64,000 nt of DNA from Azolla caroliniana (Eukaryota > Plantae > Polypodiophyta). Made by a program: the position numbers and the translations under genes. Of the stretch, positions 1 through 55,738 are shown one piece after another. The stretch spans positions 13,888,001 to 13,952,000 of the forward strand of contig JBHGNT010000006.1 in assembly GCA_043228905.1 (NCBI GenBank), given 5' to 3'. Every line of letters starts with the position of its first letter. The stretch's first letter is position 1. The notes under the pieces are model-generated. The model did not search any database. It had not been told where the DNA came from and worked only from the letters and a program-made list of their open reading frames with translations.

Positions 1-158
1 TCAATTTATATCACAAACTTCACAACCAATGTTATTTTATAAGAAACAATTTTTTAGAAATCATAAGAATTCAAAACACATGATTTTATATTACTCGATT
101 TGTTACAAGCGGAATGTAGTTACACTTAATAGCCAAATATACATTCATGATCACTCCT

Positions 159-2940
159 TTACGGAGAATCACTACTATAAATAATATACAATGACGATTC
201 CTCCTCATCATCCTCGGATGTACCAATCAGTGCATTATCTTCGTCATAAACCAAATGGTTTGACTCTAGATTATATGTAGCAGATCTCGTTTGCCTTTGA
301 CTCGAGCCACCTTGTAGACTTGGTAATTTTTCTTTTATTATATCTATTGTTGACTTCCTTAATTGTCCGGCTTTTGTAAGTGTGAAGTCGTACACGATGA
401 TATCCACATCAGAGATATCAAGGGTCGAGGTGTTACGAATGTTTCACTTCCTCTTCCTACCTCCCCTTCTTGTTTGGCATTCAATCATCTCCAATGTATA
501 CTTACCTGTAAAAGCATTTGCACTTCTAGTGTTGTACCAATGAACATTTATAGACTTGATCGTGTTTTCTATTTCATGCATTAGCACTTCTACAATTTTA
601 CCAACCCAAAATTGGTGGCCATGTGACTTCTCATCAGCCAGCGTTGCAATCAACATCCTCGCGGTGAGCTCTTGCAAATTTCCTTGCCATCTAGCTTCGG
701 CTGCTTTGGTCATCCTTGGTCCCACATAAATGTCTCTTTGTTGTGGATGGACCAAGCTGTCATTAATCGCATTTACTAGTTGCTCCGGACTTCTATTTAC
801 GCGATCATGTTGCAACGACCATGTGAATGGTGTTTCCAAATTCCAATTATCAACAGATACACAATTGTCTATAATTTCTTTCTGATCATTATAAAATACA
901 TCCCACCATGACGTGTCTTGTTGTGCGGCATATTTCTTGGCGGCCTCAATATGCTTTCTTTTTTCTTCTAAGGCTTGGAGCCATGACCGTTTTTGTTCTG
1001 ATACCAAGTCGCTCTGCAACTGTCCTTTCTTCTCAATTGGCATTTGCTTAGCTCCATGGACAATTGTACTCGGCATACAAAGTAATAACTGGCAACCACC
1101 TTCAGGTTCCCATGTTGTAGAAGATGAATATTGTTTGGCATACAAAAGTGTAGAACCACTTATTCCATTTTTCTTTATCAAAAAAATGTGATTGAAACTT
1201 ATATTGTTTAACTGAGCAAGCACTTTAACATTCCCACCACCCCCATCTAATATATATCTCTTAAAGTCATATACCTCCTTCAAGTGTAACACTTTTGGGC
1301 GTGGTGTATAAGCATCACAAATGACATCAAATAGTTTAGGTAAAGTGAAAGCATCATGTCGAGACAATTGTCTGGAGAATGTGCTAAACATTTGATCTAT
1401 ATGGTCATGTGTGTGGCCAACCAAAAGGAAATTGACTTTCACTTTCCTAAACAATTCTAGGTTGACCAACATACTTAGATAGCCAAATACAGTTGAATTT
1501 GTGTTCTCTCTAGCAGTATTGTCCAATTGAATGTATAGAACAGGGGGGAAAGGTTGTCCCCAAGACATCAAAACTCGGTGAATCACTGTAACTGTTAGGT
1601 TAGGGTCATTGTGAACATTGGGGTAAGTAATGAAGACGTGAGGTCGAACAGACCTATTATAAGCCAAGCATCCCACCAAGTGCATTTGAACAAGGCACTC
1701 ATCATTGACATCTTTGGGGAGCCTCCGCATATGCGGCAAGCATATGTATTGTTCGGGCCATGCCATCTATCATTAAGCACATGTATTGTTCGGGCCTCTT
1801 CAAACACTTCTCTCTATGATGCATCGCCTTCCTTCGTTCTAAGGATTGTGCCTCACGATGCTCTTGTAGTAACTTCTTACTCGTATCCTTTTCCATTGAT
1901 GTCTTTGCACCTTTAGCCAAACTTTTAAGATTTGCACAAATGGAGCAATACCCCATACGTACTTTACGAGGAATAATAACATTTGAAAACCGAGCTCTCC
2001 ATAATCTTGTGAATTGGCTATATGTGATCGACTTATTACGTGAGCCCAGCATATCAGATCGATAGACATCATAAACTTCCCGACGTGTATAATTATCAGA
2101 AAGATGCATCCTACCTGTAGTGGGCATTACTTCACAATTTAACTGAAAGTAAGTTTTCATCAAGCCAATAGCTAGTCTTCCAATTGCACCTTTCATACTT
2201 GGAACCGCTTTACAATTGAGCATCTGATCCCCGCTAAGTAGACGTTGTTGTACTCTATGTAGCCGCATGTTACTAACACATAACGCAATTTTGAATGCAA
2301 CTCTACATATATGTTGCGCATGGAAGATATAATACTCGAATGATACTTTGATCCCCGTACATTTGTCAGATACTAGTTGCATACGTGACCCGAGGTAAGT
2401 GTCTTGCTCATCACCGGTCATCGAAAAATAGTATCGCCTTAATTCTCGCAACTTTGATTTTCCAATCATAGACATACAACCACGGGCACAACATATTTTG
2501 TTGACATCAAATCCAATCTGTTTATCTGATGTCACCAAGCTAAATCTAGCTAGACGAATTCTTCGTGGGATTCTTCTAATATGCATAGGGCTCCCAGATT
2601 TCTCTTCCTGCATAGAGGTTGGTGTAACATTGTTACAGTCTAATTCTTTGTTGTGACCATCGCCAATGTTATTCAATGTTTCCTGGGCACTTCCTTCATT
2701 CTCGGTATCTTTATTAATATCGTATTCTTCAATAGAGAACTCTTCACATGTGTCATTATGTACATTCCCTGTAGATGAGCTCAGACAATATTCTTCGATA
2801 GAATATGGTGAGTTGGTCGACAGACAATATTCTTCAATCGAATATGGTGACTCTGATGACAAACAATACTCTTCAGTAGAAAACGATGGGTCTGATGACA
2901 AACAATATTCTTCAATCGAGAACGGTGAATCTTCACTCAT
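159..2940 (-). pseudogene. Sola-like / DUF7869-type DDD transposase, disrupted by a frameshift near 1760 and an in-frame TGA at 444-446
   Basis: ORFs 1702-2940, 444-1766 and 159-407 join into one protein of about 925 aa. Motifs: CCARGC, CRVAF, CSIC, then LMIDGM, IQLDNTARENTN and FLLVGHTHDHIDQMFS (three Asp, typical of this family). Read-through of the TGA stays in frame into NIRNTSTLDISDVDIIVYDF. Confidence 0.75.
2720..2935 (-). repeat. 36-bp coding tandem repeat (S/D-P-F/Y-SIEEYCLS, four copies plus one degenerate) at the transposase N-terminus
   Basis: Seen in translation (SPFSIEEYCLS, PSFSTEEYCLS, SPYSIEEYCLS twice, FSIEEYDI) and in DNA as repeated acaatattcttc. Confidence 0.9.
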
Positions 2941-3002
2941 GGCTTAAGGTCTAGATAGGGCTCTCTAAGTTATGGGCTTAGGGGAAAGAAAAAAACTAAT
3001 AA

Positions 3003-3650
3003 GCTCCTCTCTAAACATATACTCCTCTCTAAACATAAACTTCTCTCTAAACAAAAGCCAAATCAATAGAATGTCTATATTATGTAATATTCTATTAATA
3101 CAATACATCAAAAAATTATTTTTAATAAAGTAATTGTACTTAAAATATCAATTATTATATAAACTAGATCTATATAAAGTTAAATCAAGTAAAATATAAA
3201 ACTAATCATTAACAAGCCATGAATATATTGGATTAATGTTAAAATCATTGGCTAATTAATGGCACCCATTTTGATATTGAACGCCTCACTCATTGGTTCT
3301 TTAATGCTCACCATTTTAAATATTAGACTTATCAATCATTGGTTAATTTATGCCCACATCTTTAATACACAACATTTGAGAGTCATAAAAATTGTTGGTT
3401 TTAGTAATCAATCATTGGTACATTCATGAACCTCTATCATTGTCTCATTCATAACCTTTGAAGTCATTGTAGGTTGTTATGACTATAAAAGATTGATCAA
3501 TATGGTAGTTTGACTTTATAATCATTAATACAATCATAAGTTTCTCTAGTTAATGTGACTATGGTTACCAACTAACTATCCTCAAAGTTACCAACCTTGG
3601 TTAAGGTGACTATGGTTACTTTAACCAATGTGTTCAATCCCTATAAATAG
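3003..3650. promoter_or_regulatory. Putative bidirectional promoter region
   Basis: Three copies of ctcctctctaaaca (3003-3055). Degenerate units of about 45 bp, each starting a(a/c)tcattgg (CCAAT on the minus strand), at about 3243, 3288 and 3334, plus one near 3410. Two copies of gtgactatggttac. TATAAATA at 3642-3649 on the plus strand, followed by a cacagagca-rich leader and an ATG at 3793. Confidence 0.45.
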
Positions 3651-3877
3651 GAAGACCTCGTCATATTTCACTCACAAGAGCGTACAGAGCGTACAGAGCT
3701 CACAGAACGTAGAGAGCACACAGAGCACACAAAGCACACAGAGCACAAAGCACGAAAGCGCGATCTCCGCCTCAACTTCAACACGATCAAACATGTCTTC
3801 AAAGAGAATCGAGCGCGAGGACTCCAGGGAGGCCTCTGACACTGTGGACATTTTTGTAAATATGTTTCGTTTCTCAA

Positions 3878-4362
3878 GAACTCGATACGCCGTATCGAGT
3901 TCATGTATACAATACAAATATTTATACATGAACTCGATACGGCGTATCGAGTTCATAATTTAATTTTGCTTTTTATACAGGAACTCGATACGCCGTATCG
4001 AGTTCCTGTTTAAAGTGTAGGTTTTAAACACGAACTCGATACGGCGTATCGAGTTCGTGTTTAAAGTTTGGATTTTAAACAGGAACTCAATACGGCGTAT
4101 CGAGGTCGTGTTTAAAACCTACACTTTAAACACGAACTCGATACGGCGTATCGAGTTCCTGTTTAAAGTGTAGGTTTCAAATAGGAACTCGATACGCCGT
4201 ATCGAGTTCGTGTTTAAAACCTACACTTTAAACACGAACTCAATACGGCGTATCGAGTTCCTGTTTAAAGTTTAGGTTTTAAATACGAACTCGATACGCC
4301 GTATCGAGTTCCTGTTTAAAGTGTAGGTTTTAAACAGGAACTCGATACGGCGTATCGAGTTC
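3878..4362. repeat. Array of ten 25-bp palindromes GAACTCGATAC-G(C/G)C-GTATCGAGTTC, period 51-52 bp
   Basis: Copies start at 3878, 3930, 3981, 4032, 4083, 4134, 4185, 4236, 4287 and 4338. The 26-27 bp spacers are mostly variants of tgtttaaagtgtaggttttaaaca, in either orientation. Confidence 0.97.
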
Positions 4363-4803
4363 CTGTATATAAGAAGGCTTTGAGAGAGAAAAATTGTATT
4401 TTTGGGGTAACAAATAATTTTGGGATGGAAAAGTTATCAAATTGTCTGGCAAAATCAGTCTTTTTATGTTGGCTTTCCTTACTTTTAAAAAAAACATGCT
4501 CTAATTATAGGTGTTTTATGACCTACTTTAGCTTAAAATAGTAGAAAATGATCCACAAATTGCCTTTACGATAGCAAATTCTCGTCAATATAGGTTTGGA
4601 ATCTATATAAGTCATACCTACTATTTAAAAGAATATATAACCCTTTTTACTTATTACGATATATATTTTCTAGGTTGAATAGCCCTGCCTATAATAGATT
4701 TTTGAATATAGGACTGCTCCTGGGAACTGTTCTTCATGTTAATATACAACCTTAATCTACGTGACTACCTAACTTATGTTTTTGCATATACTTTCTTAAA
4801 TAG

Positions 4804-7800
4804 GTCGTTTAAAAACCTGTCGGACCGACCGGTGAAGAAAATAAAGCTTCGCATACAAGGTTCTCCAATCGAAGCCCAGACCAAGGTAGCTCCTAAGACC
4901 ATGAAGAGAGGAAAAAAGCTTCTCTTTAACGAAGAGACAAAATCTCAGCCCCATAGTGATGTTAGCCAAAAGAAACTTGTCGCCGCTACTGGAGGTGAAG
5001 ACCTTCCTGACCGAGATCTAACGGACAAGGAATGGTGTATGCAATATGTCGACTCAAAGAAAAAAGTCGTATTGTATACAGCAAAGAAGAAGGGTGAGGG
5101 GCAACTTGGAAAGGAAACCCCATTTATGTATGGCCGTATTCTACGATTTGACTACGAAGATGCAGATTCGGCCAACATACTGGTAATGATAGACTGCTCC
5201 AAGGGGGTACGTAAAGTGTTCCTTTTAGAAGACCTTTTAGTAAAAGAATCTTGTGGGCCAGAAGTGTTCAAAAAAGCACTTGATAGCTCACAAAACCTTA
5301 TTGTTACCTTGAGGCCATATATACAAGGCCATGTAACTCTAAGAGATGAAGTGCCCTCCCCATTGAAGCCAACAAAAAAGGTTTCCAAAGTCCAGTCAAG
5401 ACCAGCAAAGAAGAAGACAACGAAAATGTCGGATACGGATTCAACAAGTGAAAACGAAGAGGATAATAAGGGGACGCCAGGAGCTGAGCTGGCCTCGGGT
5501 GTTTTGTCATCCGAGCAGAATAAAATAAGGAGAGAGTTAATGCAACGGAAGCTGGTCAGGAAAGGGCAAGTATTTAATTTACCTATAACACACATCCATC
5601 GGCCCCCTATTGATGAAAAAACAGGTCGAAGACCACTTGAGATTAGAGAGCCTCACCGCATGCATGTTCAAAATCTCAAGAAAAAAATGAAAATTAATCC
5701 TCATGCCACTGTGGTGCCTTTTATTGTTATGGTAGATCCTGAAGAATGTGAAACCATTGAAGATTTTGATATTAGAAAACATGATCAATATAATTATTTT
5801 GTCATTGGTGGATCGCATTCAGCTGAGGCACGTCGGCAACTTGTGAGAGAACATCCAACGACTTTCTTCTTCAAGTATGCCAAGTGCAAAATTTATGTTG
5901 GGCTCACAACCGAAGAGGTTAAGCTGTTGGCATGGGACCATAATAATGATAATGACTATAGGCAGAAAATGTCGTCCATTGAGCGTATACGGTTCTTCCA
6001 CCACGAGTATTTAGACGTGAAACAAAAGTTTGGTGTGAAGTTACATCCAGGCCTTCGACGTCAATGTCTGCATGAAGTCGGCATTGTGGTAGATGATAAT
6101 GTTAGGTCCGATGGTCTTCGAAAGTATGAGTCTTGGTTTCAATTGGCGTTTAGAGATGGAGAAGTATGGGACCTACAAGATCAAATCTTCTCAATGTGGG
6201 AGAATAAGGAGGTAAAGGGTCAACGACAAAAGAAATGTAGGGTTGACCCTCAAGTAGAGTTAAAGTCACAAGCCGCCAAGAAAATTGACTTGACAATTGA
6301 AGAAGCGGCAGACGACATGAAGCTGTCTCTATGGAGAGCGATGCAAGGTATTAAGGACGAGCAGCTTCTTGTGTCGGTTTTGTCAAGGGTTGTGGCGAAA
6401 GATTTAAGCCTTGAAGAAATGGTCACTGAGTTCAATAAGTCAGTCCCTCAAATACTGAAATTGTAGTCTATCTAGTGTAATTCAAAGTTCTAATCTTGAT
6501 TTCTAATTTTACAGTCATAAGGTGTACATGAAGATCCAAGAAGTTATGATGAAACAACTTGGATGTATAACTTGGGAACAAGTGACCGAGGATTATCCTC
6601 TAACGTCTTCGTATAAGGCGTTATCAGAGTATTTTATTGCATTCAAGGATTGGGTTAGTATTCATGGTTTTTCATTACCCTTTCATCATATGTAGAGCTT
6701 GTATAATAATACCTGATGTCCTATTGCTTCCATTAGAAACCGTGTCGAGGCAAGAAACAAGGAGAAGTTAAGGATATACACGATTTCCCTACATCCTTCC
6801 TTGCACATCTCGAGCGAGCCAGAAAAGAAAAGGATCGTCGCTTAGTCAAGGCGTACGAAATGGAGGAAGATGGCTCCTTTAAAAAATTTAGCCACAAAAA
6901 AGATATTATGAGAGATCTTTACTACAATGTGGTTTGCGGTGATGTCATCGACTTGATCCAGAAGGTGCCAAAGAAGGAATATACGCTAATGATTGCGGAT
7001 ATTCCTTACGGATTTCGAATGGCTGGGTCATCATACGACGATGAACCGTTTAGGTTTAAACAATTGGAGAAGATGGTCAAGGATTTCGCTGAGCTAACGA
7101 CCGCATCCTTGTGGCGAATAGTTGTCTTTCATAGTATGGACCAAGGGTACTCGGTAGCTCAAGCTTTGAGATCTCGTTGCCATGGCATCGAGAACCTTGC
7201 ATGGTAAGGATTATTTATAGGTGTCTTTCACTATATTGCATTTCTTAAGGTTGTTGAATCTATTCTTAACTCGATGTATTATTTTTTATAGGATCAAGAC
7301 CAATGTAAATAGAGGGCCAACTTTTCGGTTCGTTAATGCCATTGAATACATAACGGTTGGCTACTTCGATGAAATTAAGAAACAGAGAATCAAAGAGCAT
7401 TCTAATGAAGTGGGAGGTTCAAATCTGTTGGTATATTCAGCAGTGACTCGGAAATTGCGACATGTCACCACGACAGAACGGGGACTTGTCAACCCATACC
7501 AAAAACCTCAACGACTTATGATGCGCTTGATCGAGATATTTTCTGTCGAAGGAGACTGGATATTAGATCTCTTTTCTGGCACAGGTATTCCTCGAACTAG
7601 GGTAACGATCTTGAGATAACCAATCACTTTTTTTTCGTTTGACAACTAAATCTTCTTGTTACTTACATCAGAGGAACTACGTCAGCATGTGCATTGAAGC
7701 TGTTTAGAAATACAGTTGCATTGGAGAAGGACGAGGACCAAGTTATATTTATTAATATGCGGATTAAGGCTTTGTGGGAGTGCCCAGACCAGGATGAGGA

Positions 7801-8026
7801 GGTCGGTGCAAAGAACCTCGCCAATACAGAAAGGTTTCAACCTGCTTCGCGAGAGCCTATTCCTCCGTTAGCCGGCGAACCGGGGGAGCTAATAGAGCTT
7901 GATGATGAGCTTATAGAAGATATTTCGTTGGCTCGGCTAACAGGGGAAACCAATGCATGTATAGCCGAAGACAGTTCTACACAAGATGATGAAGAAAATG
8001 ACGTTGATGAATTGATTGCTATGTAA
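4804..8026 (+). CDS. Spliced gene: ParB/Srx-like domain fused to a beta-class N4-cytosine/N6-adenine DNA methyltransferase (about 960 aa plus an unresolved 5' exon)
   Basis: Exons ~4804-6438, 6515-6653, 6737-7203, 7292-7584 and 7674-8026 are separated by GT-AG introns of 76, 83, 88 and 89 nt, and splicing keeps the frame open. ParB-like motif YFVIGGSHSAEARRQL...CKIYVGLT..LLAWDHN. MTase motifs in beta order: GDVIDLI, LMIADIPYG (IV), W-I-K, NPYQKPQRLMMRLIEIFSVEGDWILDLFSGTGTTSACALKLFRNTVALEKD (X-I-II). The last acceptor needs a GAG rather than the neighbouring CAG. A possible first exon lies at 3793-3855. Confidence 0.8.
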
Positions 8027-9077
8027 TAGACTCTATGAAGAATATGACACTGACGATTTGTTAAGATTTCACATTATTAATACAAATATTTGGTTTTACC
8101 TAGTGGATTCTATTCTTTATAATCTTCTATATGTTTCAATTTTATTTTTATATACTTGATTAGTAGATTTATGACATTGGTTTCACCGCGTGCATAGCTG
8201 ACTACCAAACTTATGGAGAAACATGAACTAGTTTAAATGGAGGCTGATTTTGGTCCAAGCTAACCTTAACAGAACATGGCCCTATAATTGTTGCCATGAC
8301 TGTCCATGTTGTTATTATGGATCTTTGTCTTCTATTGTTAAAACTATTATGTTTCTATTCCATTGCTGCTTAGATTGTGTAGTGTGTTGATAATGGTTCC
8401 AGTTGCGTTATTGTTCGGAGTTTGATCTTGTGTGAATCACCTAAGCAATAGAGTAGACCAATTTTAAATACATGTATGAAAGCCTAATAGGTTTGTTATT
8501 TCCACGACATTATCCTAAAGTTCACTGCCTTACATTGTGCACAATTATATACACATATGGTTTGATCTCATATGAACAAACTGAGGAATAGATTAGATCA
8601 ACTTTAAATACAAGTATTGAATACTTTAATAAGTTAGTTGGAAGCAATCACTTATACTAATGTGCACTATCCTACATTTTCCACAATTACATACATGCAC
8701 GTATGGGTCAAAGTATAAATTATATCTCATTTTATTAGTATGGATACAAGTACACCTCATATTTTTGTAAAACTTACCTAATTAATATAAGTCTTTAAGT
8801 TAGTGTTTCCCTTGTCGCACAGTAGTGACATATTGAGCCATAGTTGAACTTTATTATGCCTACATTAACTTATCAACATGTCTAAACTTGCATGATTTCT
8901 AATGATCTCCACTCGTAGATCTATCATGTATTTTTATATTTGCAAATTCTCATCAAGTTGAGGAACATGTGATACTAGTGCATCCAATTTTTGTAGAGAG
9001 GGTGTATTTGCTTCGTTTTAAGAAGATTCTACAAGTGGAATGCGCAATCCTTCCACTTGTGAACGCGAACGTGTTAT

Positions 9078-10103
9078 ATCCCCGACCTTAACACAGTCGT
9101 TCGGACACGCCCCGTGAAGCTCCTCCGTGGCACGTGTCCCCATGTGTATCTTCCACCCATGCTTGGTGTTGATCGTCCATTTTCCTTTCTTGTAGAAGTC
9201 CAAGGACATCAAGTTGATTTCGGACCCATGGTCCATCAAGGCCACCAACGGTTCTTGGACGTCCTTTATCCGAACAGGGGACTCCATAGTTGCTCTCGCC
9301 CAATGCGGTCTCATATAGTGGCTTTTCGCCAACTCGTCTTCCATGGCCACGTCGTCAAGGTGTGCTTCCCTCACCTCCAAGGGCTTCCCTGGCTCCGGCT
9401 CCATCGAGAGCCGCTTCCGCTTCACCAAGTCCACGATGGAATCATGGAACTCTTTCTTGGCAATCCCCAACACCTCTCTCAAAGAAAACTCCACCTTGTT
9501 GTCGAGTATGCGCTCTTCTAGGACTTTCCGCAAGTCCGTCGCCCTCTCTATTTCCGAACTCAGCCGGTAACCTATCATCTTCAACCTTTCCTATGAGCCG
9601 GACCCCCCGGCATCCTTCTTCTTCGGCACGCTCTGTGTCTCATACCGGTTGGTGGGCCGGCTCCACTCCGTAGTTTTGGTATGCGGCCTCCACAAAACTG
9701 GTATTTTCCTCGACCAGGTCATCCCATCCAGTGACCTCCCGGACTCGCCTTTCCGCGTGGACCACTTCCTCCTCCCTCAGCCTTACCCTAGAAAGGCCTT
9801 CTAGGACAAGTGGCTAGAACCCGGAATCCTTCCCCTTCTGGCCACCCTTCCAACCAGGATGCGAGCCGACGCCGAATAATGGATGGCCTCAGCGTGTTGC
9901 GTCACAGCTTCTTCCATTGACTGCTTCATGCCGCTGCGGCAGAAGTTCAACTTGACAGCTGCCTGTGTCTCACTGGCATACGCCCGGCCATTTCAGAGGT
10001 ACACCACGTTATTTCTGAGTGATTCATTAAATTTTGCGCAGTTCTTCAAGTCAATACCGATGGCGTCGCACCACATGCATGCACCTGTGCTCTATGGGCG
10101 GCC
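9078..10103 (-). mobile_element. Ty3/gypsy element B, distal fragment (Zn-knuckle-like end of gag and aspartic protease), degenerate
   Basis: ORF 9018-9584 has ALMDHGSEINLMS (retroviral protease-like). A CMWCD..G...C knuckle lies near 10040-10085. It continues from the gag fragment at 41638-42670. Confidence 0.75.
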
Positions 10104-13100
10104 TATTACAAAGGCGCTCCAGCTCTTCTTTGTGCACAATGGATCGTGATGTGCAAGATCATTTAATGCTCAAGACAGAAAGGGAAGGGGAAGGAGACTT
10201 ACCTCTATGTAGCAAACCAAAAAGCTTCTTCTATTTCATTACACGCAGAGCTCAACTCGCTCTCGTCAGTTTTCTGTTCTCTACTTCTCTCACTCTTACA
10301 ACTTACTACTCTTACTTTTTACCTAAGTTATAAGTGACTTATATATGTAGCTAATTAGTTGTCAGTAGCTAAATAGTTGTGCATAGCTAAATAATTGTTT
10401 CACCTTTATGTCCACTAGTAGCTAATTAGCTAATAGCTACTATAGCTTATTTCTCAATAAGCATCACATACCTTTGTTGAGCTTGCTTCTCAACACTCCC
10501 CCTGAAGCTCAACTTATCCTTTCTTGGGATCATCTTCAATCTTCTTTTCTTCATGCTTTTCAACTACCATGCCGTTGGTTATAACTCCCATCATGTGTCT
10601 AAATTGTGTATGTTTTTCCACACTCAATCCCTTCGTAAGCATATCAGCCACTTGCTGATTTGTACTTACATACATCAGATCCACTTCTCCATCAATCACT
10701 TTTTCCCTAACAAAGTGATAATGCGCTTCAATGTGCTTTGTTCTTGCATGGAACACTGGATTTTTTGCAAGCTGAATGTTGCTCATATTGTCATACCAAA
10801 TTGTGACTGCACCATCTATATATTCTTCCAAATTAGCAAGCAAGCTTCTGATCCATACCTCTTCACATGTAGCTATTGCTACTCCTCTATATTCAGCTTT
10901 AGTACTTGATAGTGCAACAATAGCTTGTTTCTTGCTACTCCATGAAATAGCTGCACTTCCCAATGTAAACATATATCCACTTGTGGATCTTCTGTCAGTT
11001 TGACTTCCAACCCAATCAACATCTGCATATCCTTCCAACTTTATGTCCAGATCAGCCCTGTAAAATAGTCCATAATTTTGAGTAGCTTTTACATACCTCA
11101 AAATTCTTCTTATGCAGTGCAAATGTGGCTTTGTTGGCTGTTGCATAAACTAACTGACTAATCCAACAACATAACTCAAATCAGGTCTTGTTATGGTCAA
11201 ATATATGAGGTTGCCCACCATAGACCTGTACATGTTTACATCTTCTATTTTGGCTCCCAAATCAGCCCTCAATTTGCAGTTCTTATCCGGTGGTACATCA
11301 ATAGGTTTGCATCCAAGCATACCATACTTCTTCAACATAGTTGTTACATACTGTTTTTGCAACATATATATACCACTTTCAGATCGGATCATCTCAATAC
11401 GAAGAAAGTATCTCAACTGTCCCAAGTCTTTCATATGAAATTGCATTTCCAGATTATTTTTTTAGCTTCCTTATTTCATCCATAGAATCAACACCGATGA
11501 TTAAATCATCAACATAAATCAGGATAACAACAATGCAATCATTTATCGTCTTTACATACCATGATGGATCAACTTTTGACATTTTGAAGGCAAATTTTTT
11601 CAAAGATTCTGAAAGTTCTTTATGCCATGCTCTCAGTGCTTGTTTTAGTCCATAGAGAGCCTTTTTTAGCCTACATACATATTATGGATGCTTCTTATCT
11701 TCAAAACCTAGTGGTTGACACATATACACTTCTTCTTCCAAGTTACCATGTAAAAAGGCATTTTTTACATCCATATGGTGCAACACCCATCTTTTGGCTG
11801 CACTTACAACAAGTAGTGTCCTCAATGTTGTCATCTTTGCAACCGGTGCATATGTTTTATCATAATCAATTCCTGGCATTTGGGCACATCCCTTTGCAAC
11901 AAGTCTTGCTTTATGTCTACTTACATTCCCATTGGAATCATGCTTTGTTTTGTAGACCCATTTGCAACCTACAACATTTTTTCAGTTTGGTAACTTTACC
12001 AAATCCCATCTTCTATTTTCATCCAATGCATCTATTTCTTCTTGCATTGCATTCACCCATTTCTTATCAGATTTTGTTGCATCAAAACTATTTGGATCAG
12101 GGATTTGTACCACTTTAGACATGTATGCATAATGCATAGCCATATATGTGTCATAACCAAATCTTTCAACAATCTTTTTCTCTCTATCTGATCTTCTCAA
12201 TTTGTGATTTCCATCTTTCATTCCCTTTTCCAAGCTCATATACCAATGATGTATTTGAAACTACATGTTCCATGTTTCTAGATCCATCATCAAGCATTTC
12301 ATATTCTAGCATCTTCTGTTTTCCCTTTTTATCGTCATATTTTTTGTGTATTGCATTTTTTCCATTCCATGCCTTAGATTCAGATTTACTACCTGAGCTT
12401 CCAAATGGTCCAGTACATTCTATTGATGTGGAACTTTGCTGTCCAACATTGCTTCCATCTCTTCCATTTTCAGATTCACATCTCTCTTCATTTTCATTGT
12501 CTTCATCAGTTTCTACATTTGTTTTTGGGCTGTACCAACTGCCCAACTCATCAAATATTACATCACGGCTTACCACAATCTTTTTTGGTAATGGGTTATA
12601 GCATCTATACTTTGCTCCTCTGAGTATCCAACAAAAACACATTTTTCAGCTTTTGGATCAAAGCTTACTTCTCACTTTTGGCAAGGCATCCAAACACTTT
12701 TAAGTATCCTGAACTAGGTTTCCTTCCATACAAACATTCTTCATGAGTTACTTCATGTACTCCAGATGTTATACATCTATTTAGAATATAATTAGCTGTG
12801 TTTACAACTTTTGCCCAATAGTACAATGGCATAATTTTTTCAGTTATCATAGCCCTTGTTATGTTCACCAAAGTTCTGGTTTTTCTCTCAGCAACTCCAT
12901 TTTATTGTGGAGTATATCTACATGTGAACTGTCTTCTTATTCCCTGATTGCATAGAAAATCAGAAAATTCATTGGAGAAATATTCTCCTCCTCCATCAGA
13001 TATTGAACATTTTATTCTAGTTCCAGCTTGCTTTTCTAACATGCATTTAAACTTACAATTTAGTAATCAAATACTTCACTTTTTTCTTTCATGAAGTAAA

Positions 13101-16100
13101 CCCATGTTTTCCTTGAGCAATCATCAATAAATGTTACATAAAACTTACATGCACTAATTGATGTATTTTTTGTTGGTCCCCATATATCTGTATGTACCAA
13201 ATCCAACAAATTTTTGCTTACATGTCTTTCATGAGGGAAAGGCAACCTGTTTTGCTTTCCATATTGGCATGTGTTGAGAATCAAGCTCAACTTGGTCCAG
13301 TGTGTGAACTCACCTTGAGAATGAATAGACACTCCAACGGTCAAGAGTCACCATTATGTCACCTCTTTGTATTCTAGAATTTAGTATGAGTCATAGAATC
13401 ATATTCTATGACACATAACTTATGAGCTTTCACATTCCCCATGCTCCATGAGTCTTGTAGTTAATGAAGAGAGAGGGTGACTATATAAAGCACCCTCCTC
13501 CCACCTTGTATTGCGTCAAGTCTTTCTCCTTTATTAATATACTTTTACCTTGCATATTCTCTACGCCGTACTCCTTGTCTCTCTCTCACTCTCCCTCTCT
13601 CTCATACACACACATAAATCACATCTCTTCCGCTTCACAAGAATCATATCCAATTCTTTACATGGTATCAGAGCGATTTGGTAGTTCGATCTAGCCCATT
13701 CGCCTCATCGTGATCGTGTGTTGTGTTCCACGCCGACGACCAAGAACCGGCTCATCGCTATTGTAGCTTCGCTACATAGCTCACATTCGAAGAGAGAAGA
13801 AGAAGAAGAAGAATCAACATAATGAATACTCAAATGGGGAGCGCTCTCCCTACCGAGAAGTTGGATCGAAACAAATTCGCATCTTGGGAGTACAAGATGC
13901 ACCAATACCTTGTCGGACAAGGCTATTGGAGCTACATCAAAGGAGCGCATGAAGACCGACCCGTTGACACGGTTCTCGGATACGCGACATGGGATCAAGT
14001 CGCAAGCCGCATGATGTATTGTTTGGCAACATGTGTTCACGACCACATGCTCGATTACATTCGAGAAGCCAAGACGCCAAAGGAAGCGTGGGAAAATCTA
14101 CGAAATATTTTCGCCGCCAACACGACCGCGAGGAAGCTTCAACTCCACCAAGAGTTGAATAACATTCAACAAAGGGACATGTCCATCACGAAATACACCT
14201 CGAAGATCAAGGAGCTTTGTGATTCGCTCGGCTCAATAAGCGTAAATATCGATGATGATGAGATGGTGCAAATATGCCTCGGCGGCCTCGCACCACGGTT
14301 CGGCGCGATGCGAACCGCTGTTCTAGCAAGGGAGAAATCTCCCTCCTTCTTCGAGCTCCAATAAATGCTATTGGTCGAAGAAAACCACGTGCGTACAAGG
14401 AGCAATGAGTCGGAAGGCCACATGCTCTACACGCACTCGAACGGAGGAAGAGGATGCAGACGGTCGAGAGGCCGATTCGACCACGGACAAGGCGGACGAG
14501 GTCCGACCTACAATAACAACTCCTAATTCCAGCCACAAAACGGAAGCCAAGGAGGAACCTTCGCAAGAAGGGGGAGCTTCCACTCTAGCCCGAGCTGTCA
14601 AAACGCAACCGAATGCGGATATTGCGGAAAGCTCGGCCACCACGAAGAAGAGTGCCGAAAGAAGATGCGTGAATCGGCTTCCACATGCCGACAACTCACG
14701 AATTACGCACACAACTCCGACTACGAAGGGTATAGCGGAATGTACGGGCACAACTCCGACTACGAAGATCGTGGGGGAATGTATGCACGCAACTCCGACC
14801 GTGGCAGAATGTTCATGATGAAACATAGAGCAAACTCTATGTCGGCCTCTACCTCAACTAGTGCCCTCAATCCGGAGGACGTATGGTTTGTTGACTCCGG
14901 AGCCTCAAACCATATGACATCCCACAAAGAATGGTTTCTCGAACTTTGAGAGCCAGAGCAACCCGGTTATGTCGAAACCGGAGATGACACTACGCACCCG
15001 ATTCGGCACATCGGCAATGTTCCGTTCGGAAAAGAAGGTAAGCAAAATTACATTAAAAATGTCTTGCATGTACCGACCATTACGAAGAATTTGGTCTCCG
15101 TTGGCCAAATTGTAGAGCAAGGGATGCAAGTTTGATTTAATCAAGGCGGTTGCTTCATCGAAAAAGAGGGCCGACTCATCGCACGCGGACGAAGAGAGGG
15201 CCGAATGTTCATTCTCGACTCACACAAGATGAAATCGGCCATGTTCGCAAAGGTCATGAAAGCCGACTCCGACATAGAGTTGTGGCACAAGCGAATCGGC
15301 CACATCAATCTCAACAAACTCAAAGTAATGAAATCGAAAGGAGTCGTCATCGGACTCCCGACATTCAAAGAGAAGGAGATTGAAGGTATATGTGAAGCAT
15401 GCCAATTCGGCAAGCAACACCGACACCCATTCCCAAAAGAGCGGAACGTGAGCAAAGGTCTACTTGATGTAGTCCATTCCGACGTATGGGGACCGGCACA
15501 GACGGCTACATTCGGCAGATGCCGATATTACGTGCACTTCATCAATGACTTCTCCAAGCACACTTGGATCTACCCGATGTAGCAAAAGAGCGAAGTGTTC
15601 GGACACTTCCAAACATTCAAAAATGAGGTCGAGAAAGCCACGGGCCGACATGTATGTTCTCTTCGATCGGATGGCAGCAAGGAGTACTTCTCGGACGATT
15701 TCACACCGTATCTCCGAAAGGAAGGAATTCGGCGAGAATTCACTTGCTGACACAGTCCGAGCGCAAAAATCGGCACATCCTCGAAGTAGCATGGGCCATG
15801 ATGAACAAGAAGCATATGCCCAACTCATATTGGGCCGAAGCTGCAAATACAGTTGTCTACCTAATGAACCAATGCACAACATCCAGTGTGCACGAGGTCA
15901 CTCTGCATGAAAAATACTTTGGAAAGAAGCCGGACTTATCGCACACCCGGATATTCGGCGCGATAGCGTACGTGCACATCCCCGACGAGAAGCGTCAAAA
16001 GCTTGACCCGAAATCGGAGAAATGTATCCTCATAGGATACTCACTGGAGCAAAAGGGGTACAAGTGCTACAACCATTCAACTCGAAAATCTCGAGTAAGT

Positions 16101-54081: not shown

Positions 54082-55197
54082 CTAAGAGGCAAGCAAGGTT
54101 TGGGCTTGTTGCTCGTATTGGAATTTAGGTGAAGAGACGAAGGAGTCGTCAGCACTAAACACAAAGATGCCCGGGAGGAGAGCGGAGGATTTGAGTTGTT
54201 GGCATGCATCCAAGACTGTGGATGGGGAGGGCCCGACATTCCCTTCCGTACTAAAGCTCGCCAACACGTTGCCCCCGCCATACTTGGCTGCCGCAGTTTT
54301 GTAGTAGGTCACATACTGAGATGCGCTGGTGCTAGTGTCATACGTGTAGAATTGGAAATTCACATAGTCGATGATGCCACGGTGCTCATTCCAAAGGGCC
54401 TTGTAGAAGCTCTCCACTCCATCAAAGGGAGCAATGGACGCCGACGATATCACTCCATCTTGCTTCAGTTGTGTAATGAGCTGCCCTATGCATGTCGAGA
54501 ACGTTGCCTCCGATGACATATCGAAGTGCTCGTAGTCGATGTCAATGCCATCTAGATGGTATAGCTGCACGAGATTCGTCAATGATGACACCGCGTTCGA
54601 TACCCACGACGACACTGTGGTGGGCTGGAATTGGGCGAAATTGCCATTCACCGTGTCTCCTCCCAGGCTAACCATCACCTTCACATTCTTGTGTTGGGAC
54701 TTGATCGCCAGCACTGCGTCGGGCGTGAGCTTCTGGTCATCCCAAAACACATTGAAATTCCCATTCGTAGACTTGCTTCCGTCGGCATTGTAGTCGATGG
54801 CGAACGAGAGAATGTAATGGAACTCGACACCATCGTTGATAGGCACATCGGAGAATGCAACATTGTTGAACTCGGCACCGATATACTCCCTGAAAAGCTT
54901 CCCATTTGTGGAGCCTGAGGTTGGAGATGGTGATGTGGGGCTCTCATCAGATGTTGGCTCAGATATGCACAGAGATTGCCCTATTTGTAGATCATCACAA
55001 TCGACTCCTGGATTATAACTCTGTAGATCTGACAGAGAGATCCCATTGTCCTGTGCTATATCATAGCAAATATCTCCCGATTTCACTGTGTATGTTTTAC
55101 AGGTCGTGGATGCACCCTCTGCCATGAGCCAGGAGGAATGCTTGGAGCAGCCTGACGAGGCCAACAGCAGCAGCAGCGTCACCAACAACAATTTCAT
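54082..55197 (-). CDS. Secreted LysM-domain GH18 (class IIIb-type) chitinase, intronless, 371 aa
   Basis: Signal peptide MKLLLVTLLLLLA; LysM CKTYTVKSGDICYDIA..NPGVDCDDLQIGQSLC; S/T/P linker; GH18 domain FREYIGA, SLGG and an intact catalytic DGIDIDYE. Confidence 0.95.
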   Translation of the reverse strand: MKLLLVTLLLLLASSGCSKHSSWLMAEGASTTCKTYTVKSGDICYDIAQDNGISLSDLQSYNPGVDCDDLQIGQSLCISEPTSDESPTSPSPTSGSTNGKLFREYIGAEFNNVAFSDVPINDGVEFHYILSFAIDYNADGSKSTNGNFNVFWDDQKLTPDAVLAIKSQHKNVKVMVSLGGDTVNGNFAQFQPTTVSSWVSNAVSSLTNLVQLYHLDGIDIDYEHFDMSSEATFSTCIGQLITQLKQDGVISSASIAPFDGVESFYKALWNEHRGIIDYVNFQFYTYDTSTSASQYVTYYKTAAAKYGGGNVLASFSTEGNVGPSPSTVLDACQQLKSSALLPGIFVFSADDSFVSSPKFQYEQQAQTLLAS

Positions 55198-55738
55198 GTG
55201 GGTAGTGGTGGTTTAGGGTTACTCTGAATCTACCTATAATGTTAGCAAGTAAGAAGCTCCTTCCACCCACCTACTACACAGGAATCAAGATCTGGAAACA
55301 CTAGGCCCTTCTCCTTGTATATACATATACATACATACATACATACATATATATGTATATATGTATGTGTCGATTGCATTTGTGAAGAAGGTTGAATAAA
55401 TCAACGAAGAAGAAGCCCCACATCATCGTTATCATCATCATCATCATAAAACACTTGAACAAACATAAAAAAGAAAAAGAAAAGAAGAAGACGGAATTCC
55501 ATGCCATGGTAGGGTATGGTCCTAATATCCATGTATGGTATTTTCAACACGAACCCAAGAAAAACGAGTAAATCATTAAATGGCATTGTTTGACTTCCAA
55601 TCCAAATGCTTGCAGGGGTCACTCAATCATTCAACTCTACTCGTGTGTGGTTAGGTGAGGTGCAATGCGTGTTTCAATGAATTACATCAGCCATAACTAA
55701 CTAGGTGGAGTAGAACCATCTGAGTTTAATTGCATCCC

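Follow-up and report, generated by a model that had tools for sequence, protein, structure and literature searches.

A Sola1-type transposon of Azolla caroliniana carries a predicted ParB-methyltransferase gene with a palindrome array in its first intron

Results and Discussion

The Element in the Azolla Window

We analysed a window of 64,000 nucleotides from Azolla caroliniana (GenBank assembly GCA_043228905.1, contig JBHGNT010000006.1, positions 13,888,001 to 13,952,000 of the forward strand); coordinates count from its first base unless a relative is named. The region 159-9075 belongs to one damaged copy of a Sola1-type transposon of about 9.3 kb, bounded by terminal inverted repeats (TIRs). 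Three parts make up this element: a transposase gene of the DDD type (three catalytic aspartates) on the minus strand, an array of ten palindromes and, on the plus strand, a six-exon gene that joins a ParB-like/helix-turn-helix (HTH) region to a beta-class amino-methyltransferase (MTase), called the ParB-MTase gene below. A sequence-only reading of the same DNA had already located these parts, and all three were recovered where it had placed them, the transposase by its DUF7869 match, the array as ten palindromes and the second gene as a 961-residue open frame with a match to PF01555. The features of the element and of its insertion site are as follows.

159-2940, minus strand: Sola1-type DDD transposase gene, defective in this copy (Pfam PF25273, DUF7869, E = 1.2e-50)
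444-446, minus strand: in-frame premature TGA near the transposase C-terminus
1395-1770, minus strand: catalytic-triad region (IDGM 1770-1759, LDN 1526-1518, THDHID 1412-1395)
1744-1796, minus strand: private frameshifting duplication just past the first catalytic Asp, after IDGM (22-nt direct repeat, 1738-1759/1775-1796)
3642-3648, plus strand: TATA-like box upstream of the ParB-MTase gene, a putative promoter element (a TATA-like word precedes exon 1 in relatives too)
3793-3827, plus strand: exon 1 (MSSKRIEREDS); the short first exon of relatives ends AG/GT, and the phase fits exon 2
3878-4362, no strand: ten palindromes with core CGATAC-N3-GTATCG and a 51-bp period (about five helical turns), in intron 1
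4804-6438, plus strand: exon 2, encoding the N-terminal region and the ParB/Srx-fold and helical HTH-like domain (5504-6436)
6515-6653, plus strand: exon 3, linker; the GT..AG splice is in frame, and the Ceratopteris protein P0022 has the same continuation
6737-7203, plus strand: exon 4 with MTase motif IV, ADIPYG (6995-7012)
7292-7584, plus strand: exon 5 with NPYQKP (7491-7508) and motif I, DLFSGT (7566-7583); PF01555 E = 5.5e-8, phrog_67 E = 4.8e-8
7674-8026, plus strand: exon 6, end of the MTase domain and acidic tail
9032-9059: internal inverted repeat in the region of the right TIR
9040-9075, plus strand: right TIR ending GTGTT, a reversed match to the left ends of relatives L006, L008 and L080
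9076-9079: predicted 4-bp target duplication ATAT, its length taken from L032, L082 and L083
9076-9590, minus strand: insertion target, an interrupted gypsy-type open reading frame (ORF; DUF4100 E = 3.2e-5, below the curated cutoff)

The sequence-only reading had drawn the palindromes between the two genes. They are ten and regular, as it said, but because the short exon 1 precedes them the array lies inside intron 1 of the ParB-MTase gene. The same reading had bounded the element at 159 and 9077; it is indeed one block, but its right end is at 9075 and its left end would fall outside the window, near -230, about 230 bp before base 1, because the stop-to-end distance in close relatives is ~380-390 bp. 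The termini read 5'-AACAC...GTGTT-3', and 9040-9075 also matches the right ends of relatives. The broken gypsy ORF that had been seen next to the block adjoins it directly.

Copy Number, Termini, and Linkage

We aligned four DNA sequencing runs to positions 1-10600 of the window. Depth was even and very high from base 1 to ~9075, across both genes (X1; 34,000-155,000 summed), and ~450 in the flank at 9559-9912. Summed depth does not equal copy number; single element contigs, however, reached ~10,700x against ~50x for flank contigs of the same run, and there are therefore at least a few hundred copies.

Relatives were collected by scanning metagenome contigs for the ParB domain, which gave 152 confirmed loci; the 80 that we kept all come from one assembly series and are mostly collapsed short-read repeats. 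The transposase gene is divergent from the ParB-MTase gene in the window copy, in 12/12 testable loci (those in which the sequence upstream of the ParB domain extends for 2.4 kb or more) and also in two more distant elements, L082 and L083, described below. The palindrome was present in 26 of the 32 loci whose upstream sequence reaches 1.3 kb or more, and L052, which has no array, is an internal-deletion derivative. The co-occurrence in dispersed copies that the sequence-only reading had proposed to look for was thus found.

Alignment of the flanks, also proposed there as a way to define termini and target duplication, succeeded fully for the first and partly for the second. Across families, 36 termini lie beside 36 different flanks; 33 end in GTGTT and three in ATGTT. 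Both ends are present in four plant loci (L028, L032, L035 and L052) as well as in L082 and L083, and full plant elements measure 7.6-8.6 kb. A 4-bp target duplication was detected in both elements on long contigs (L082 and L083, with TTAG and ATAA) but in only one of the four plant contigs with both flanks (TGTT), and it was missed in the other three probably because these contigs are collapsed multi-copy assemblies. The DDD core, together with AAC...GTT termini and a 4-bp duplication like those described for Sola1-1_Ec32 (PMC12477816), is the basis on which we assign the element to Sola1, an assignment that is predicted from sequence.

Distances among the transposases and among the ParB-domain proteins of 13 linked elements were strongly correlated (r = 0.91; 0/5000 permutations). 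The two trees share their main groups, with 7 of 12 inner ParB branches unresolved and with kin sharing traits; their Ceratopteris and Riccia rows are added references, and linkage of the Ceratopteris pair is not established. The earlier claim that the three parts travel as one element is therefore upheld by the 12/12 linkage, the TIR termini, the dispersed copies and the correlated distances: the TIR-bounded unit exists in many dispersed copies and in diverged families. A single-copy host gene with a chance transposase as its neighbour is ruled out by the high depth, by the same linkage and by a 31-copy family of the gene.

At L014:3280, L027:4040 and L038:3960, elements of the clade were seen inside each other's genes, as nested insertions or assembly joins.

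The ParB-Methyltransferase Protein

Intron boundaries were placed from GT..AG dinucleotides, reading frame and conservation; two runs taken to be RNA yielded three and zero contigs and no splice joints, a blank that speaks neither for nor against expression. Exons 2-6 join at GT..AG sites into a single open frame of 961 aa, or 973 aa with exon 1. The exon-1 donor reads GG in the window copy, and all of the depth in all four runs has T at 3829, which gives GT.

A model of the product of 5504-6436 (predicted local distance difference test score, pLDDT, 81) had 15 Foldseek matches at E<=0.001, all of those listed being ParB or Noc, the best at 8.9e-6. In a wide structure search the ParB-domain model was matched by PadC (Z 9.5), pNOB8 ParB (8.9) and KorB (8.7), with both the N-terminal and the helical DNA-binding parts covered; the top nine matches were all ParB/Srx-fold proteins, at middling Z values. 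The sequence profiles of Pfam, PHROGs and NCBIfam missed the domain, which was recognised by the fold search alone. Judged by its modelled fold, the second gene is ParB-like, as the sequence-only reading had named it.

The MTase motifs follow in the order IV-X-I of the beta class, with DIPY at residue 691, PYQKP at 827 and FSGTG after 851 of the 973-aa model. The MTase part matches phrog_67 at E=1.5e-27, and its best solved matches are M.RsrI, MboIIA and CcrM, mostly adenine-specific beta-class enzymes. N6-methyladenine (6mA) appears the likelier product, and we hold this with reasonable though by no means full confidence.

No change in ADIPYG, NPYQKP or DLFSGT (motifs IV, X and I) occurs in any of the 31 near-complete gene copies, three of which carry stops. 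Of 16 pairs compared, 10 were unsaturated for the MTase and gave a ratio of nonsynonymous to synonymous substitution rates (dN/dS) of 0.013-0.084; 6 were unsaturated for the ParB domain and gave 0.021-0.06. Both domains are under purifying selection.

The Palindromes of Intron 1

The 15-bp core occurs ten times in the window against 0.40 expected, and ten matches were reached in 0/100 shuffles. Across loci the core takes the form CGAT[A/G]C-N3-G[C/T]ATCG, set in unrelated, family-specific flanks. Its spacer is free in sequence and fixed in length: of 160 sites, 158 have 3 nt there.

Intervals from one site to the next fall into groups of 31-33, 39-43, 50-53, 60-63, 71-74 bp and so on. Reduced to 58 distinct values, taken from 19 families, this spacing is phased at ~10.3 bp with an offset near zero (R=0.61; 0/5000 under two nulls), and it remained phased when the 51-bp class was left out (R=0.54; 1/5000) and when the 51- and 41-bp classes were both left out (R=0.45; 16/5000). 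Such phasing is what protein sites on one face of the DNA would give, suggesting that the array is read by a DNA-binding protein.

Half-sites are nearly missing from the terminal 300 bp of the elements (2 in 9 ends), and the array core stays constant while the TIR interiors diverge between families. Conservation relative to the window copy is higher in the ParB domain (72-89%) than in the N-terminus of the transposase (36-61%). Because the core is nearly absent from the termini, the TIR interiors differ and the ParB domain outconserves the transposase N-terminus, the ParB protein is the putative binder of the array.

Three further repeats or words were noted around the array. The 10-bp word TGTACGGACA is conserved just past the exon-1 donor in 10 loci of diverged families (L006:3731, L008:3605, L026:6138, L028:6667, L029:3595, L032:4035, L046:3552, L072:3660, L074:792 and L080:3683), with a shortened form at ~3843-3851 of the window; it may be a second cis-element, either a protein site or a splicing signal. 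Direct repeats of the ATCATTGG type, spaced at 45-46 bp, lie between the two promoters (window 3240-3428), and 9-bp AGAGCAC repeats occupy the 5' leader of the ParB-MTase gene (window 3671-3747).

The Transposase

Intact relatives of the transposase are 865-932 aa long. Among 40 homologs D464 and D506 are invariant and D383 is at least 90% conserved, and the model of an intact relative has an RNase H-like core that matches integrases and Mos1 (best Z 9.4, root-mean-square deviation 2.6, 129 aligned), the best Foldseek match reaching only E=2e-3. These three Asp residues are the predicted catalytic triad. Of the two lesions of the window copy, the duplication at 1744-1796 is absent from other copies in the sequencing runs, which are intact across it, and the L008 transposase is open at both lesion sites.

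The disordered N-terminus of the transposase is encoded in part by a 39-bp coding repeat (SIEEYCLSS units; window 2785-2916). At L084:7070-12694 we observed an 1874-aa intronless ORF in which what look like other domains surround the DUF7869 core; the 13 kb at this locus include no ParB gene.

Taxonomic Range and Divergent Relatives

Named ParB-MTase homologs were found in Ceratopteris, Adiantum, Ginkgo, Riccia sorocarpa and Chara braunii. One of the four Riccia ParB genes looked up, R1sor_010796, is flanked by two DUF7869 genes (R1sor_010795/6/7), a linkage that is only suggestive because Riccia has dozens of DUF7869 genes; no adjacent ParB/DUF7869 locus tags were present among those listed for Chara or ferns. 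A Chara-like ParB-MTase, P0139, and a Chara-like transposase, P0389, each lie on an 8915-bp JGI contig, so that the two may share one contig. The Chara protein P0121 (CBR_g41648; 1825 aa) contains two tandem ParB-MTase units, either a pair merged in annotation or a true duplication.

In pattern scans based on near-exact peptide words, which distant relatives may escape, 0 of 43 candidate ParB-domain relatives in GTDB genomes, 0 of 6 candidate P0139 relatives in viral contigs and 0 of 9 candidate transposase relatives in viral contigs were confirmed. A transposase-profile scan of GTDB genomes gave seven loci, two of which (L082 and L083) have a divergent intron-split ParB gene. The two elements are complete, measure 13.75 and 10.9 kb and have AAC termini as well as 4-bp duplications; the L082 transposase has its best match in the sponge Ephydatia (57%). 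Their arrays consist of other palindromes and lie near both element ends, downstream of both genes.

The contigs of L082 and L083 (G001:C41 and G002:C12), although filed in GTDB bacterial bins, look eukaryotic, with introns, transposons and a Pif1/OTU ORF at L083:14960-16648. The bins probably contain host contamination, and we infer that the two elements are animal host DNA.

Two other kinds of ParB-like gene were noticed. In P0195 and P0377 (Logan contigs) a sterile alpha motif (SAM) domain is fused to the ParB helical part, without an MTase; this is possibly a domesticated host gene. An intron-split ParB-like gene at L093:9228-9773 (G002:C17), on a eukaryote-like contig, reads GGVHRY and keeps the box arginine discussed below. 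No DUF7869 match lies within ~9 kb on either side of it, and it could be part of another transposon type or a host gene.

Relation to Known Systems

The sequence-only reading regarded the locus as a candidate new system and held that Sola elements encode a transposase only. Neither statement is supported. Sola1-1_Ec32 of Ectocarpus, reported in 2025, carries a 1104-aa ParB + N4/N6-MTase gene on the opposite strand, for which self-binding and self-modification were proposed (PMC12477816), and inverted-repeat arrays beside a ParB accessory gene are reported as well (bioRxiv 10.1101/2025.02.11.637652). In the light of these two accounts a categorically new system is ruled out.

Sola1-1_Ec32 and the window element share the Sola1 transposase, the opposite-strand ParB-MTase (1104 against 973 aa), the AAC start (AACCG against AACAC) and the 4-bp duplication. 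The brown-algal element is 21.5 kb long with a 282-bp TIR, whereas the plant elements are 7.6-9.3 kb with TIRs of ~36 bp. Its termini are given as AACCG-CGGTT and its best match as Sola1-1_PPa, and the authors cite Iyer 2011 for green-algal cases (PMC12477816). The passages of that account that describe the element mention no palindrome array; the proteins are compared here by description.

The red-algal Plavaka accessory genes PAG2/PAG3 place a ParB-like gene beside tandem inverted-repeat arrays (bioRxiv 10.1101/2025.02.11.637652). As in our case, a transposon-borne ParB-like gene is proposed to bind and modify its own element, and a PF01555 methylase is on the same element. In Plavaka, however, as described there, ParB is fused to a 2-oxoglutarate (2OG) oxygenase, the methylase belongs to a different gene, in which its partner is a SET domain, and the host element is EnSpm/Plavaka. 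VANC of the Arabidopsis VANDAL elements is likewise a transposon-encoded accessory protein with family-specific targets that form tandem repeats (PMC5735166). By that description, it is a different kind of protein, includes no methyltransferase and has been shown experimentally to cause loss of 5-methylcytosine (5mC).

ParB-linked adenine MTases are also described from algae and phage, and the phage ParB_N + N6_N4_Mtase fusions at ParB-terminase loci have the same domain order as the element protein (PMC4738411). Such fusions are ~400-490 aa long, without the long helical insert or introns, as far as they are described. By language-model features no named clusters come nearer (0.87-0.88, short of the 0.9 mark and so a lead only), and identity to them is 23-29% among the matches listed. 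Like bacterial ParB, Noc and KorB, the modelled protein has a ParB/Srx fold and, after it, a helical HTH-like domain, and parS-type repeated palindromes are of similar size to those of the element. Unlike these bacterial proteins, it has no GxxR arginine and is fused to an MTase; no ParA partner is present on the element, which has only two genes between its termini.

Among eukaryotic beta-class amino-MTases, DN4MT1 of Marchantia (TSPPY, no extra domains; bioRxiv 10.1101/2021.02.12.428880) and N4CMT of bdelloid rotifers (with a chromodomain; PMC8885841) are described as host genes that make N4-methylcytosine (4mC), and neither is transposon-borne. The suggestion that elements of the present kind were a route by which amino-MTases entered plant genomes found no direct support: DN4MT1 has TSPPY and the element family D[I/F/L/V/A]PY, a comparison by motif only. 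A transposon-encoded DNA methyltransferase with proposed self-methylation is also known from the DNMT-carrying retrotransposons of charophytes and dinoflagellates (PMC5890265), but these are C5 enzymes in retroelements, and the passages describing them mention no ParB domain or operator array.

Sola1 is listed in Physcomitrella (PMC9033089); PMC4455052, PMC5751038 and PMC10294476 bear on classification only. Our full-text literature searches brought up no description of the land-plant elements, of the intron-1 site or of its phasing, though the Repbase moss Sola1 entry may already hold the gene. Sola1 with a ParB-MTase gene is thus known, and the self-marking that the sequence-only reading had suggested agrees with the published proposals, which it reached on its own; what is added here is its land-plant/streptophyte range, the phased site, the evidence from selection and linkage, and the contrast with MTase-eroded animal-like versions.

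Possible Function of the ParB-Methyltransferase

The reading that we favour, with a confidence only a little better than even, is that the ParB-MTase binds the palindromes of its own intron 1 and methylates its own element, and so lets it stay expressed or mobile in the face of host silencing. Cut-and-paste movement is established for DDD/E elements, and the dispersed flanks of the copies show transposition of the unit; the transposase would cut and paste the TIR-bounded unit. ParB-MTase dimers would bind the palindromes cooperatively, all from the same side of the helix, and the bound protein would methylate the element that carries it in cis, probably at N6 of adenine. Since the array would confine MTase action to the element's own family, self-recognition would be family-specific. 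The benefit would be an element kept transcribed or transposable despite host silencing by 5mC, and feedback on the ParB-MTase gene's own promoter would be a likely side effect. We infer four links in this chain: binding of the array by the ParB protein rather than by the transposase or a host factor, an active MTase, action restricted by the array, and the anti-silencing benefit.

Several observations weigh against this reading. The element genes are mildly CpG-depleted, with 27 of 28 below the codon-shuffled expectation, and because long terminal repeat (LTR) controls are depleted likewise (7 of 8), composition gives no sign of protection from 5mC. A k-mer analysis against codon shuffles yielded no target word for the MTase. 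Motif IV is D-x-P-Y, with I, F, L, V or A as x, and not DPPY, one Ginkgo copy having DIPH, and the methylated base is uncertain because the N6_N4 domain has repeatedly switched between 6mA and 4mC (PMC8885841). The MTase region of L082 and L083 is still homologous (E=3e-7 and 0.005) but has no recognisable motif IV or PYQKP; as ParB and arrays persist in these elements beside eroded MTase motifs, not every lineage requires methylation. Phasing is seen in the L082 array (R=0.54) and not in that of L083 (R=0.22). The 80 loci are not independent, since they come from one assembly series and kin share traits.

The analogy with bacterial partition systems is affected too. ParB CTPases carry a GxxR box, and in the element-borne ParB proteins inspected its arginine is gone (GGSHS, GGNHS/T, GGGHS/T/C/Y, GGLHT, GGNNS), the box having been located by its position after model strand 98-102 and not by structural alignment. 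CTP-driven spreading or a sliding clamp is doubtful because of this replacement. The array had been called parS-like in the sequence-only reading; the palindromes do look like protein-binding sites, but the missing arginine weakens the parallel with parS and the clamp.

An architectural role in transposition is the closest competitor, although we consider it unlikely. The accessory protein would be a cofactor whose ParB-type dimers, bound at phased arrays, put a bend into the element or form bridges within it, and aid end pairing, with methylation secondary; TnpA of CACTA and the Myb protein of Harbinger are thought to help their transposases to pair ends. L082 and L083 fit this role, with arrays near both element ends and ParB kept beside eroded MTase motifs, as do plant arrays near the element centre in all four full elements that have one. 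The catalytic motifs, however, are invariant in plant families, and the MTase is constrained as much as ParB. Red-algal ParB accessory genes with a different enzyme domain also adjoin inverted-repeat arrays, which speaks for a cofactor, but ParB modules have been described alongside several transposase superfamilies unrelated to each other, in keeping with a role that does not depend on the transposase (bioRxiv 10.1101/2025.02.11.637652). At three DUF7869 loci with some flank (L081, L084 and L086), moreover, no ParB match was present.

A self-limiting switch appears more improbable still. The protein would bind the intron-1 operators and repress or tune the two divergent promoters in the manner of KorB, with operator methylation setting the state; the module would limit damage from high copy number and not counter host silencing. 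KorB is indeed among the top structural matches, the array lies 50-570 bp downstream of its gene's own start codon and in intron 1 of every relative displayed, and the invariant CGAT of the half-sites could be the methylated word. Yet the number of sites varies from one or two in some families to 14-15 in others, the arrays of the animal-like elements are downstream of both genes and away from promoters, and the family nonetheless reached hundreds of copies.

A neutral array, as an inverted minisatellite, or an array that serves as a transposase or host-factor site, with the ParB-MTase gene as passive cargo in either case, is very improbable: many palindrome arms do run into family-specific flanks, as from repeated inverted duplication, and copy number and spacing vary, but core, spacer length and helical phase are kept even across families with saturated synonymous sites, strong purifying selection acts on the gene, whose divergence follows that of the transposase, and the lack of an array in L052 goes with its internal deletion.

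If the favoured reading of targeted self-methylation is correct, the element would represent the second sequence-specific self-modifying transposon system of plants after VANDAL/VANC, and would supply a small targeted DNA methyltransferase. Enzyme-written 6mA or 4mC in land-plant DNA outside Marchantia sperm is contested, and the plant elements make the ParB self-modification proposal testable, as they offer two genes, hundreds of copies, intact and selected catalytic motifs and a 15-bp candidate site. It is tempting to extend this further, to an ancient, eukaryote-wide Sola1 clade of streptophytes, brown algae and animal-like hosts that uses a phage-derived ParB-MTase as a read-write self-marking system, acting through phased operators and writing 6mA or 4mC; this wider proposal is tentative, and we would sooner doubt than assert it. 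Were it true, bryophyte, fern and gymnosperm genomes would contain a hidden source of locus-specific amino-methylated DNA, and a sequence-targeted counter-silencing device unrelated to VANC.

Surroundings of the Element

The only evident host gene among the LTR-retrotransposon remnants of the window is an intronless gene for a LysM + GH18 chitinase (54082-55212, minus strand), which matches chitinase A, 4RL3, at E=1.2e-117; we take 4RL3 to be a fern enzyme, and the match is in keeping with a non-seed land plant. An old copia remnant at 10500-13400 has an observed/expected CpG ratio of 0.14, as against 0.9-1.2 for the window's remaining LTR ORFs, so that sequences of very different ages or methylation histories lie side by side.

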